This document shows positions 1,467 to 36,722 of a stretch of 64,000 bases of DNA, one piece after another. This DNA comes from Octopus vulgaris (taxonomy: Eukaryota). The position numbers and the translations under genes are program-made. The stretch is from contig OX597817.1 of the NCBI GenBank assembly GCA_951406725.2, forward strand, positions 67,332,001 to 67,396,000. Direction: 5' to 3'. Each line of letters opens with the position of its first letter. Position 1 is the stretch's first letter. Below the pieces are notes generated by a model that was not told where the DNA came from, made no database searches, and saw nothing but the letters and a program-made list of their open reading frames with translations.

Positions 1467-1959
1467 TGACACATACATACATGCACACACACATATACAT
1501 ATGCACACACACACACACACACATATATGCACACGCGCACGCACACATGCATACACACACACACACAATACATAGATATGCATGTACTTTAAATCCTTTG
1601 TTCCTTGTAGGGCATAGACCATTAACAACCTATCTCCACTGCTCTTGACTCTGGGCTGCCTTTTAGGCCTTTTCCTCCAGCTCTTGGTGGTTTTGGAATG
1701 TCATCGATGCTTCTGTAATTTTTATTTTTTCTAAGTAAGGCTGTTGGCCCTAGGCAAACCCATTATTTTTACTTCTAGGAGAGAAGGTTTATATTAGTCT
1801 GTCTCCTTTGATTTGCTCAGTATGGAAGGCTATCCAGGAGCTTACGCTCCATTGACACGAATCTCAGGGTCATTGAGACACAAAAGCCACCATTTGCAAC
1901 AGGTACTGGACTTTATGATGGATATATAATGTAACTATATTGGTAAAGTAGAGAAGATA

Positions 1960-3200
1960 CGAATGGTGATGATGCTGAAAGAGTCGAAAAAATACAAATC
2001 AGGCGTAATCCACCAGATGTAAAAACAGCCAAGAAGTGCTTCATGTACACACCGAGACATGGTTCGTGCAACGCAAATTCATTCGGCGTAAATCGGTTCA
2101 GACCGTTTGCAAGCATGATGCGGAGTGAACGTAGATCTGTTGTTAGCAACAGGGTCAAAGCGAGGGAAACAAAGAGAAGAGAGCTTCATTTAATTCAATT
2201 TTCTCAGCAGGGACAGATGACGAAATGTGAGGAACACAATGTTGAGAAAAAAAAAAGTTTGAATGAAATATGGAAGTCTAAGTTTTCTGATTCGTTCATC
2301 CTACGATGTCTTGCCATCGCCTATAAACCTAGTTAGATGGAACGTATCAGAAAAGGATATATACAGATGCGGAAAAGTCGGAACACTGAAACGTATTCTT
2401 TCCAATTGTTCACTGGCATTGAATAGAAATACATGGACGTACAATCTGGTCCTTAAGGTTATCTACAATGTTATAAAGAATCAAATTGCTCTCATCAACA
2501 GTGGCAAAAAAAAACACTGAAAGAACCAGCCAGAGATTTCATTACCTTTGTGTGCACAGGACAGTTGGTCCGTTAGACAAAGAAACTTCCTGTGAGCGAT
2601 GAAAAGTTGAACAGCTATTAGGATGTAGCAGCAGATTTACCATGGCGCCAAGGATTCTTTTCCATTCTGGTTACGAAGAAACCGGATATCGTCGTATGGT
2701 GTGAGGGAAAGAAAGCGATAAATCTAGTCGAGTTAACGGTTCCTCATAAAGATAACATGATCGGCGCTCGGAAAACCTCCTCGAGTAATGTGAAAACGCA
2801 ACCTTGAAAGCGGGCATTTTTCAATCGAAGTCGGATGTAGAAGATTCGTTGGATACAGTGTTAGGCAACTGTTGTTATTGTTAAGGCCTAACTCATCGTA
2901 AAGCAAATACCACCATGAATGATATCCAGACTATAATGGAAAAGGCAAGCCACTGGATTTGTTTAAAAAGAGACGATGAGCAATGGCTAGAAGAATATTG
3001 TGCGAAACCTGATAACCAGTTGATTTAGCAAGCAGGACTTCATTTCAGTGAGGGGGCGGGGCGCAATAATGCCGTCGAGAAGTGGGCCTCGAAACAGTTC
3101 GTATTCACTCCTGATGACCCCATAAACTCGCTAGCGTCCGGTATGCTGAGCTTTCAACTGGTAACACTTGCATCTGCTAGTTGCTTGAAAGAAAATATAT
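1960..3200 (+). mobile_element. 5'-truncated, frameshifted HERO-clade non-LTR retrotransposon (C-terminal zinc-knuckle region and RLE endonuclease, plus 3' UTR)
   Basis: Peptides PPDVKTAKK, FLIRSSYDVLPSPINLVRW...CGKVGTLKRILSNC, PDIVVW...LVELTVP (PD-(D/E)xK-type RLE), IEVGCRRFVG and EKASHWICLKR, in shifting frames. Confidence 0.85.
3050..3121 (+). ncRNA. Candidate permuted hammerhead in the HERO 3' UTR
   Basis: GAGG 3050-3053/CCTC 3087-3090 directly before GAAA 3091-3094. GCCGT-C 3071-3076/ACAGT 3094-3098 with a GUC triplet and one mismatch. GAG 3077-3079/CTC 3108-3110 directly before CTGATGA 3111-3117. Confidence 0.55.
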
Positions 3201-3398
3201 CATAAAAATATATAGTTTTGATGTGTTAGCATAGCCAAACACGAGGAATTAAAGCAACTGCAATTTTATAGTTTAGCAACTTTCAGGATAGAACCGAAGG
3301 TGTTTATTGGCTTTCTTTTCCTTTCTTTTTAACATTGTTTTTCATTATTTTTTTTTGCTTCTCTTGGAGTTTCGTTTGTGCCTAGGTGGTTTGATTAC

Positions 3399-3419
3399 AC
3401 GCACACACACACACGGACA

Positions 3420-25281: not shown

Positions 25282-26496
25282 CCTCTCTCTCATTATATAT
25301 GATCCACATGTTAATATGTCTAATCTTTTTCCCCTACTTAGCCTCTGTTTGAGTAGTAATTTTAACGTTCTGAAATATTTGTTTCTAGAAAGTTATTTTA
25401 TATCAGTTCCCCTTATCTTATCTATCTCTCTTATACTTAAGTATTTTTAGCTTAATCTATCAGCCATTTTTATGAATTCCTCTTTTGCTAATTGTATCCT
25501 AGCACTTCCCTTTATCTTTCCTGTTTACATTAATAAACCACCATACTACTTTAATTTTATATTCCACCATACCATCTTCATTACGTACATATATTGCTTG
25601 CACGAAAAAAATCTATTTAGTCTTCATTCTGTTACGAACAGTTTCAAATCATCCATAAATGCATGAGGTTTTGCTGTCTCTGCTGCCTACTGTGTATCAA
25701 TATCAATGCAGCATCAGCATGTCTGTGTGATTAAGAAAATCACTTCACCACTATATAGTTCCAGGTTCGACCTTACGACACAGTATTTTGGGAAAGAACA
25801 TTGTGTCGTAACCTCGGTTTGACTAGTAATTTCTATGAATGAAGATTGTACAGAAACTGTGTATAAGCTTGCTGAGGATTCCTTTCTTTTCTCTGAGTGA
25901 AAGATGTAACCGTCACCCTGTTTAACATCACCGCTGGGTCCCTTAATGGTAATGGCTTTAGTCGAGTTAACTGTGTTGCAAGCATTCGGGATTGGTCTTT
26001 CACAATCCAGTTGGCGGCAGTGGGTAGCGATGGAATTTTAGCATGGTATTTGCCCTTTTTCATTATAGCTAAGAATAATGTAGAATGCTGTTTTATAAAC
26101 GATACAGTTTATTAGTGTATTAGTTCTTGTAACCACGGAGTATTAATACACTAAACATTAATTGACCCTTGATATGTTTATAATACATTTATTCTCCGCT
26201 TGGTATATCACTGCTCAAGTAGTTTTTGTATACATACATACATACATACATACATACATACATACATACACACCCTCACTATGAAAATATCTTTGTATGA
26301 TATTAGCTATAAACTTATCAATGACTTGGTCATTATTGTTTGTGTCGTCGTAGCTTGAGTCGCTCATTCTGGCAAAAGATATATCTTCGACATAGCATAT
26401 ACTATAAATAAGTTGAAAAATAAAAAGGATTACACAAGAAGGACAAGGACTGGCAAATACGATATTAACTTAACGCTTTCCTGGAAGGAGAAAGTG

Positions 26497-26532
26497 TCTC
26501 AACGCTTCGGACGTTAGTCCTTCATCAGAAGA
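26497..26532 (-). ncRNA. Minimal Penelope-type hammerhead motif, probably inactivated
   Basis: Minus strand reads TCTT-CTGATGA-A-GGAC-taac-GTCC-GAAG-CGTT-GAGA; GAAG replaces GAAA. Confidence 0.6.
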
Positions 26533-26588
26533 AAGAGAAAAAGCAGAGTGAGTGAGAGTAATAGTCAGTAAGATAAGAGAGAAGGAGG

Positions 26589-32788: not shown

Positions 32789-33050
32789 ATAGGACAGACA
32801 CAGAAGGACCCTAATTCTTCATCAGTTATCGACCGAAATACTAATACACAGTTTCATGCCTATAAGGATAAGACTGAGAACTTCGCATATCGGCGGCACC
32901 CGCAAAATTTGTGGAGAATTAGGTCTCGAGCCCTACAGAATGCCGCCGTTATGCGAAGATCTAAGTTTTATCGTTAAATGCATGAAACTGTGTATTAGTC
33001 TTTCGGTCAATAACTGATGAAGAATTAGGGTTCTTCTGTGTCTGTCCTAT
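32789..33050. repeat. ~260-bp imperfect fold-back made of two opposed copies of an HHR-bearing repeat
   Basis: ataggacagacacagaa...ggca (32789-32898) is inverted at tgcc...ttctgtgtctgtcctat (32941-33050). Confidence 0.9.
32807..32925 (-). ncRNA. Candidate non-circularly permuted hammerhead, best-preserved copy
   Basis: Minus strand: CCTAATTCT - hairpin - GTGCC - GCCGATATGC - CAGT C TTATC - GGCAT GAA ACTG - GTATTTCGGT - GATAA CTGATGA AGAATTAGG. GUC triplet; predicted cut between 32872 and 32871. Confidence 0.75.
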
Positions 33051-35249: not shown

Positions 35250-36087
35250 GAAGAGTAAAATAAGCAATTAGCTGAGCCAGTTGCTATTGCTTAGCTCCCA
35301 TCTCCAAGTCAACTCTAATCATGTAGACTATAATCAATGGTATTGTATCTTGTCTTTGTAGTGGTATGGTGGATTGTGCTATCAAATAGATAATGTGTAC
35401 TTTCTTTTGAGAAAGTATGGTGTGATTTCAGTAAATATTGGCTGCTATTTCTTGCAGATCTAGCGACCACATACAAGGGTTCTCTTCAGCAATGCAGTCT
35501 AGCATGGGAAAATGCCAAGAACAGCAATCGCAACACAGTACCGACTACAGATAAAATTAACCTAATATCAATACCAAGATCTGACAATTTACTGGAAATT
35601 TTCCTAAAATACTAAAAAGAAAAGTTGGGGGTTCGATCCAAACTGCTTGAAATACTCCTTCAATATAGCTTGCTTAACGTACGTTTATAGTTGAAAAACC
35701 AGAGACGACGGTTTTTCAGTCGGGGGAAAAATCCCTTTATAATCACATTGTGTTAAAAAACAAACAAAATAATATACTTAAGAGATAAGCGAAATGAAAT
35801 CACTCCCGAAAGTGACCGCGATAGTTATTTCACTGTTGCTACGTACTTGTGTCACTTCAGCAACGAAATCGAATCAGTTTGAAGAATTTATATATATAAT
35901 CTATAAACTGATTTGCGAAGGCGCCACATGTATTTTCTGGAAAATGGTGCGCTTATACCACTAAAATAATATAACTAAAAGGAAGCATAACAATTCTTCA
36001 ACAAAAGAAAAGAAGTAGAGTAAGCTCTAAAAATTGCAAGAAATTTCTCTGACCACACATAATGTATGTGTTATAATCCCGGTTAGT

Positions 36088-36722
36088 TTGACAGATCGAT
36101 AGCTCTTTCTCGATTCTGTGGGTGGTGGTGCATGGCCGTTCTTGGTGGTGGGATCCGTCTAGTTGATTCCGATAATGAACGAGATTTCGGCTTGCTAACT
36201 AGCACATTGATTAGTGCTTTTCCGGTGGCGCGGCGGCGCCGAAACCATCGTCGGTAGCCCCGCGCACTGCCCGGGCTTGCCGTTGCCGCCGCTCTCCTTC
36301 GCGTCCGGTGCTACAGCCGCATCTGGCTGCAGCCCCCTCGCGGGGCGGTCGTGGCGTGGTTGCAGCGTCAGTTGTGGAGCGGTGGAGGTTATCCGATCGA
36401 CTCAGCCCGTGCAAGCCCGACGGCGGCACGCCGTCGCGTCCGGGCCAGTCGGTTGGCGAACACAGCACTTTTTAGAGGGACGGGTGGCAGAAAGTCGCAC
36501 GAGGCGGAGCGATAACAAGTCTGTGATGCCCTTAGATGTCCGAGGCCGCATGCGCGCTACACTGGAAGTATCAGCGGGCACATCTCCCCCGGCCCGAGAT
36601 GGTCGGGAAACCTATGAACCACCTGCTGAGATAGGGATCAGGGCCTGGAACCAACCCCGTGAACGAAGAATTCCCAGTAGGTGCTGGTCATCAGCTCGCG
36701 TCAATCACGTCCCTGTCCTTTG
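36088..36722 (+). pseudogene. 18S rRNA pseudogene fragment (V7-V8 region)
   Basis: GATAGCTCTTTCTCGATTCTGTGGGTGGTGGTGCATGGCCGTTCTT, ATAACAAGTCTGTGATGCCCTTAGATGTCC and GAATTCCCAGTA...ACGTCCCTG.CCTTTG, with lesions in conserved blocks. Isolated from any rDNA unit. Confidence 0.95.

Follow-up and report, generated by a model that had tools for sequence, protein, structure and literature searches.

A hammerhead-like RNA fold with an interrupted core block in the 3′ UTR of an R2-group LINE of Octopus vulgaris

A decayed non-LTR retrotransposon copy, found in a 64,000-nt stretch of the Octopus vulgaris genome (contig OX597817.1, hereafter the window), carries downstream of its ORF a motif that, as far as its nucleotide sequence and that of its relatives can tell, resembles a hammerhead ribozyme yet lacks one defining feature of both the classical and the type-SGC forms. 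The link between A9 and G10.1 appears to be replaced by a perfect four-way junction with two extra helices, IV and V. The motif very probably self-cleaves, and the patterns of genomic copies point to ribozyme-made templates of unit length that are probably circular, which bears on gene-insertion tools of the R2 type.

The motif would break the stated assumption that the CUGANGA block of hammerheads is uninterruptible, so that a large family of genomic ribozymes would have escaped the descriptor searches published so far. The fold also offers a compact RNA for structure work, with an engineerable point inside the core, and the copy patterns challenge the textbook account in which R2-group LINEs use the 3′ end of a linear RNA for priming. 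Young, near-identical copies of the LINE with full ORFs are present in the genome, so that the claims on both ribozyme and template are directly testable. No report of the motif or of circular templates in HERO/RLE LINEs was found in the literature, in a search whose coverage is thin for subscription papers, Repbase reports and the supplements of PMC10085705.

The host LINE and the motif in its 3′ UTR

From position 1944 on, the window copy aligns with other genomic copies at 72-79% identity over ~1.3 kb, and its 3′ end was placed from an alignment of 30 copies; 1656 candidate copies of the LINE 3′ end are present in the 2.8 Gb genome. Intact family members encode a single frame of 1175 aa with an RVT_1 match (E=7e-19), and the best PDB matches of the family protein are R2 proteins, which together identify the element, by its protein sequence, as an R2-group (RLE) LINE with a single ORF in which the RT is followed by a C-terminal PD-(D/E)XK nuclease. 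The CxxC/H and PD...ELTVP columns, which we take to be the motif of this nuclease, are conserved among relatives of the protein, and the PD...ELTVP region can also be recognized in the broken ORF of the window, where the family stop codon (2999-3001) reads TGT. No Pfam match was obtained with the C-terminal protein fragments, and no relatives were found in the viral contigs searched; among named proteins, the closest is one of Argonauta hians, at 52% identity.

Assignment to the HERO clade, which draws on the original prediction, on sequence motifs and on the occurrence of homologues in fish, lancelets and molluscs, is plausible. The insertion flanks of the copies are unrelated to each other and often AT-rich, i.e., there is no sequence-specific target, and HERO elements have been described as non-site-specific (PMC3636483). 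One decayed LINE tail with common flanks recurs on six contigs (L009, L012, L015, L017, L019 and L020), where it adjoins a transposase-like ORF and apparently lies inside another repeat.

The core words of the motif, GTC (3074-3076), CGAAAC (3090-3095) and CTGATGA (3111-3117), are found on the + strand where the original prediction had put them. They start ~75 nt 3′ of the position of the family stop codon, and the predicted cleavage site falls between 3076 and 3077. The place of the motif, predicted at 3050..3121, was thus correct, its extent was not, the full motif spanning 3025-3134 (Table 1).

Table 1. Features of the LINE copy, of the predicted fold in its 3′ UTR and of the second motif (window coordinates)
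Feature	Positions	Strand	Basis
Decayed, 5′-truncated non-LTR retrotransposon copy, R2-group (RLE, HERO-like)	1944..~3198	+	Alignment with other copies
ORF remnant with frameshifts and stops; CCHC-type knuckle, C-terminal restriction-like endonuclease	1947..3001	+	Three-frame translation
Helix IV, 5′ strand (outer 3025-3032; inner 3034-3037, decayed here); partner 3118-3134	3025..3037	+	Family alignment, covariation
Hairpin V; 3′ strand contains GAGG	3038..3053	+	Alignment, covariation
Stem II, 5′ strand, first base G10.1, upstream of block S; partner 3086-3090	3053..3057	+	Parses, covariation
Helix X, 5′ strand and bulge; equals the bridging helix between stems I and II of type SGC	3058..3070	+	Helix of at least 5 bp in 26 of 27 representatives
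Block S: stem III 5′ strand, G16.2-U16.1-C17, predicted cut, stem I 5′ strand	3071..3081	+	Parses, copies starting there
Block G: stem II 3′ strand, G12-A13-A14-A15.1, stem III 3′ strand	3085..3098	+	Sequence, alignment, covariation
Block C without its stem II strand: stem I 3′ strand and CUGAUGA	3106..3117	+	Sequence, alignment, covariation
Helix IV, 3′ strand, beginning directly after A9	3118..3134	+	Alignment, parses, covariation
Remaining 3′ UTR to the insertion end, ~120 nt past the cut	3135..3198	+	Copy-end alignment
Second, independent four-way-junction hammerhead fold (predicted), in a non-coding head-to-tail repeat	32805..32925	-	Family majority fold, parses

The core nucleotides C3-U4-G5-A6-N7-G8-A9 and G12-A13-A14 are intact in the window copy, and the C.A mismatch in stem III had been rightly ascribed to CpG decay (CGG in the family, CAG in the window). 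Over 116 nt, the window motif differs from that of a young copy by 19 substitutions and a 2-nt gap, and the pairing of helix X (TGCGC with GCGCA at ~3097-3102 in the family) has decayed. It fails the core filter described below, folds no better than shuffled sequences (z-score +0.73), and no hammerhead was matched in the window by Rfam at gathering thresholds; the window copy is probably an inactive, decayed relic. The nested fold of the young copy itself reaches a z of only -1.1, with competing pairings between G/C runs. Small deletions between the repeated G/C runs of the motif recur in copies L262, L263, L347, L370, L384, L394 and L413, and take out hairpin V or helix X.

Conservation, covariation and topology of the fold

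Relatives of the LINE protein, 29-53% identical in the C-terminal region, are encoded at 79 metagenome loci, 66 of which include enough downstream DNA. When stems I of at least 4 bp and III of at least 3 bp were required within 430 nt after the ORF, a hammerhead core was present downstream in 49 of these 66 relatives; the 66 reverse strands contained none, and of 412 windows taken upstream 2 had one. The non-circular S-G-C order noted originally is far beyond chance at the level of the family. A relaxed descriptor, in which GAAA, CTGANGA and five helices were required while the triplet, the cut gap and the junction linkers were left free, parsed 50 of the 79 loci and left 16 of the 66 with downstream DNA unparsed. 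Since the descriptor demands both core words, their conservation among the parsed loci is partly selected. The elements left free are strongly patterned: the cut gap is 2 nt in 44 of the 50 parses, the cleavage triplet, with its bases unconstrained, is then RUH in 44/44, and in these same parses U16.1 is invariant and N17 is never G. The A15.1-U16.1 position is U-A in all 30 aligned sequences, G10.1-C11.1 forms a G-C pair in 44 of the 50 parses and a G-U pair in 5, and N7 varies (T28, C12, A6, G4). All three junction linkers have zero length (0/0/0) in 44 of the 50 parses versus 12 of 196 parsed shuffles, in which both core words had been kept; the linker between stems I and II measures 1-8 nt in nearly all parses.

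This conservation spans considerable protein divergence, the 32 representatives (<80% alike) having a median amino-acid identity of 43% and falling into 25 clusters at 60%. For covariation, 28 of them were aligned by MAFFT together with the young copy and the window copy (L035, L041, L064 and L087 were left out owing to long insertions or doubtful parses); the alignment was not fitted to the pairs, and segment ends were taken from the descriptor. Across the 29 pairs of the proposed structure 87.5% of cells are paired, versus 58.9% after shuffling, which ignores relatedness, and 35-47% in slid registers, which retain it, and double-sided changes occur in 27 of the 29 pairs. Stems I, II and III pair in 94.6%, 89.3% and 94.7% of cells, respectively, with double-sided changes in 13 of 15 pairs; the corresponding values are 83% and 8 of 8 pairs for helix IV, and 79% for hairpin V, where 6 of 6 pairs covary. 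In the aligned relatives, the 3′ UTR of an RLE LINE thus holds a conserved core with covarying stems, as originally anticipated. RNAalifold, which cannot draw pseudoknots, recovered from the same alignment, with its unevenly aligned outer helices, stem I only, extended by pairs that clash with the core.

Stem II, in contrast, was not where it had first been drawn. A pairing of GAGG with CCTC needs a C>T change at 3089 that is absent from most copies, and on the cross-family alignment it is paired in 53.8% of cells versus 48% after shuffling, GAGG being instead the 3′ strand of hairpin V. Nor is the motif a plain member of the six known permutations: stem II as in type SGC, between the strand after CUGANGA and the strand before GAAA, was tried and rejected, being paired at chance level (42.0% versus 40.6% shuffled), with its first pair kept in 3 of 30 sequences and 0 bp in 44 of the 50 parses. 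A kink-turn-like pattern (a 3-nt bulge and tandem GA) between stem III and helix X is visible in 16 of 27 representatives, e.g., L057, L062 and L085, and absent from the subgroup closest to the octopus LINE family; it was not adopted as part of the core model, the count of 16/27 being one without a chance control and the octopus family not fitting it.

In the 5′ to 3′ direction the predicted elements follow the order helix IV 5′ strand, hairpin V, stem II 5′ strand, helix X, block S, a short linker, block G, helix X, stem I with CUGANGA, and helix IV 3′ strand. The A9-G10.1 link is absent, as the strand after A9 pairs upstream to form helix IV. Eckert et al. (PMC10085705) distinguish six permutations, taking it as given that CUGANGA is inseparable from the stem strands next to it, and give interruptions of block C by more than 1-2 nt as unknown in hammerhead alignments; natural hammerheads with one additional base at the stem II 5′ end are known. 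With type SGC (HRIMA-1 and variants), as presented there, the LINE motif shares the S-G-C order, two pseudoknots, all core nucleotides, a short linker between stems I and II and an extra helix bridging them. However, the stem II strand directly follows CUGANGA in type SGC, while it lies upstream of block S in the LINE motif, which places the latter outside the six permutations as listed in that text; type-SGC RNAs are moreover reported there from metatranscriptome and metagenome data, and no genome of a known organism is among their sources. Because block C is interrupted, activity is not to be assumed from the letters.

Ends and junctions of genomic copies

In all 30 young copies, blocks G and C are retained and the insertion ends 118-133 nt beyond the predicted cut. 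The young-copy query selects copies bearing that tail segment, but the same 3′ end is reached by 30 copies retrieved with a query lying largely on the upstream side of the cut. As insertions end 118-133 nt beyond it, the cut does not set the end at which target-primed reverse transcription (TPRT) is primed. The original prediction that cleavage makes the RNA 3′ end where TPRT starts, which agrees with the position of the motif near the 3′ end of the element, is contradicted by these ends and we regard it as barely tenable.

When the whole genome was searched for copies without the two bases preceding the cut, 12 matches were obtained: 8 start exactly at the cut in unrelated flank, 1 is a join to a piece of the ORF and 3 carry TC>CT. 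At the control positions -3, +2 and +6, true truncations numbered 1/4, 1/7 and 0/1, so that 8 at the cut compare with 2 at the three control positions (binomial p=4e-4); a control at -6 (0 truncations in 2 matches) was left out, since copies in the common AT flank do not fit its pattern. Of 788 listed copies, the first 100 include 4 that begin at the cut and none that begins 1-6 nt upstream of it, while ~8 truncations 7-37 nt upstream each lie at a different position. These 4 overlap the earlier matches, providing a better denominator and no replication, and the numbers are small. About 96% of the same 100 copies cross the cut. Copies that start exactly at the predicted cut are likely a trace of cleavage in vivo and, in the simplest reading of these sequences, a few per cent of the templates had an RNA 5′ end produced at the scissile bond. 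In L259 (C13:19076367) a short internal piece of the ORF directly adjoins the base that follows the predicted cut, which is what a template jump at a free 5′ end would produce. The TC>CT change in L253, L254 and L257 (C3:176280508, C3:176573387 and C7:65579713) sits exactly at the scissile dinucleotide, and represents either an inactive allele or a junction scar.

Copies also stand head to tail. In 6 of 19 long loci a full 3.7-kb unit stands directly behind a piece of its own tail and, of the 30 loci retrieved with a 5′ UTR query, the head is reached in 24, of which 23 continue into a tail copy. The tail pieces upstream of the head in these 23 loci range from 22 to >1,700 nt, and 18 extend across a second cut (two of the head-to-tail loci are one duplicated locus). 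The 3′ UTR tail runs through an invariant junction into the 5′ UTR of the element, the junction being identical across copies that are 80-100% identical to the young copy, and solitary ends blend into the junction sequence by a variable number of bases. Upstream and downstream copies match in age (rho 0.88, n=18); by within-locus identity ranking the own partner came first in 3 of the 11 loci listed, a mixed outcome. None of 86 seams has an indel, in loci that came from similarity searches favouring intact seams. A similar arrangement is seen in the metagenome relatives, where 7 of 31 loci with at least 400 nt downstream read straight into the next ORF start. Four contigs assembled from public sequencing runs, of either RNA or DNA origin, gave coverage but neither ends nor strand, and are given no weight here. 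Five internally deleted head-to-tail loci (L277, L286, L287, L291 and L295) have periods of 564-1434 nt, 4 of them joining unit position ~680-820 to ~3100-3400, and possibly derive from short non-autonomous circles or from jumps.

Head-to-tail genomic copies of more than one unit, with one ribozyme motif per unit, are as expected from replication of the Penelope or retrozyme type. Penelope-like elements with pLTRs likewise carry hammerheads in terminal repeats and form head-to-tail copies longer than one unit, and a circular template for reverse transcription has been proposed for them (Cervera and de la Pena 2014, PMC4209133). Their hammerheads are, however, of the classical or minimal type I and accompany a telomerase-like RT and a GIY-YIG nuclease, whereas the LINE has an R2-group RT and a C-terminal restriction-like nuclease. 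A self-cleaving RNA, predicted here, would bring the element close to R2 and L1Tc as non-LTR retrotransposons that process their own RNA with a ribozyme; according to a review (PMC6765202), the ribozymes of R2 and L1Tc belong to another class (HDV-like) and lie at the 5′ end of a linear RNA, and some LINEs and SINEs, the clade unnamed there, use hammerhead or HDV-like ribozymes.

Replication route, its alternatives and a second repeat

The route that we favour would begin with the formation of helices IV, V, II, X, III and I, in agreement with their conservation and covariation. Helix IV would stack on V, and II on the core, bringing A9 next to G10.1 although the two are not covalently joined. 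The copies that start at the cut suggest that cleavage after N17 takes place in vivo; at two successive sites, as in head-to-tail loci, it would likely free a unit-length RNA, which would likely be religated into a circle. In a cut-to-cut unit RNA the junction would lie 120 nt from the 5′ end. Insertions end 118-133 nt past the cut, blending into the head-to-tail junction, and internal priming at this junction would account for the fixed 3′ ends, the short copies starting at the cut and the uneroded junction, just as rejoined ends would account for the scar-free crossing of the cut and the copies of more than one unit. Most cDNAs would then cross the rejoined cut without a scar and could run past one unit, yielding a complete element preceded by a stretch of its own tail that varies in length, and so regenerating two ribozymes for the next round; the few per cent of templates that stay linear would give the ~120-nt copies beginning at the cut. 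The same route has been proposed for Penelope elements; here the element using it would be an R2-group LINE. Taken as a whole, the chain of cleavage, unit-length RNA, covalent circle and internal priming ~120 nt past the cut seems to us rather likely from the copies and their seams. Its extension to an entire clade of R2-group LINEs, replicating via a closed RNA circle with a hammerhead of a seventh topology, internal TPRT and retrozyme-like passengers, is a proposition that we hold in even balance.

The unit RNA could alternatively stay linear, with the R2-type RT jumping from its 5′ end to the 3′ end of the same or another RNA. R2 RT is known to copy non-continuous templates; the copies stopping at the cut and the junction in L259 show that free ends and jumps occur, and the internally deleted loci, with their differing breakpoints, look like jumps. 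End-to-end template jumps usually leave added or lost bases, yet all 86 seams are free of indels, the three TC>CT copies being the only odd ones, and 86 of the first 100 of 788 listed copies extend for at least 30 nt upstream, the 11 nt before the cut showing nothing but substitutions. We therefore consider such jumping unlikely as the general route. Somewhat more improbable appears a slow or regulated ribozyme, acting on templates that are mostly uncut read-through tandems, where the cut would trim the 5′ end or down-regulate the RNA. The large majority of copies crossing the cut would fit an RNA that was never cut equally well, natural permuted hammerheads are slow (0.004-0.19 per min; PMC10085705), and R2 uses its ribozyme only to free the 5′ end (PMC6765202). 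A linear template would however lose upstream sequence to 5′ truncation in each generation, whereas old and young subfamilies, and other animals, still have upstream tail pieces (22 to ~2,000 nt) and a junction that is not eroded.

That the fold is hammerhead-like in appearance only, and serves as a non-catalytic element bound by a protein, e.g., for recognition by the RT or the RLE during TPRT, would agree with a priming site fixed ~120 nt from the fold in two repeat families and with the interruption of block C. It would leave aside the absence of G at N17 and the invariance of U16.1 where both were free to vary, as well as the accumulation of 5′ ends exactly at the predicted scissile bond, and appears very improbable. 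The circular route is thus preferred over these readings.

The second of the two families is a repeat with about 1,000 candidate copies. In the window it occurs as an inverted pair, at 32805-32925 (-) and 32930-33035 (+), the + copy of which appears to be without hairpin V. Its majority fold comprises helix IV (10 bp), hairpin V (7 bp) and stem II (5 bp), plus X, III and I; 14 of 24 copies parse, 10 of them with zero linkers. The units, ~665-695 nt long and arranged head to tail, end ~120 nt past the cut as in the LINE. Six-frame reading and tblastn with the LINE proteins gave no Penelope or other ORF and no similarity in this repeat. The suggestion that the fold is common to unrelated retroelement classes is accordingly not supported, the second motif residing in a repeat that is non-coding. 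Given its LINE-like end spacing, the ~680-nt repeat may be a non-coding passenger of such a LINE. Its closest match is with animal non-LTR retrozymes, which are likewise non-coding tandem units with one hammerhead each (PMC7229834; bioRxiv 10.64898/2026.07.22.740005). The hammerheads of animal retrozymes are of the classical type I, and these retrozymes are linked to Penelope elements, unlike the ~680-nt family with its four-way-junction fold and LINE-like spacing of ends.

Two further sequences of the window were noted. At ~26490-26540 (-), a sequence resembling a classical type I hammerhead (CTGATGA, a stem II hairpin and GAA) adjoins a CT-rich tract and gave no match in Rfam at gathering score. 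A degenerate 18S rRNA fragment with a long GC-rich insertion occupies 36035-36670 (+).
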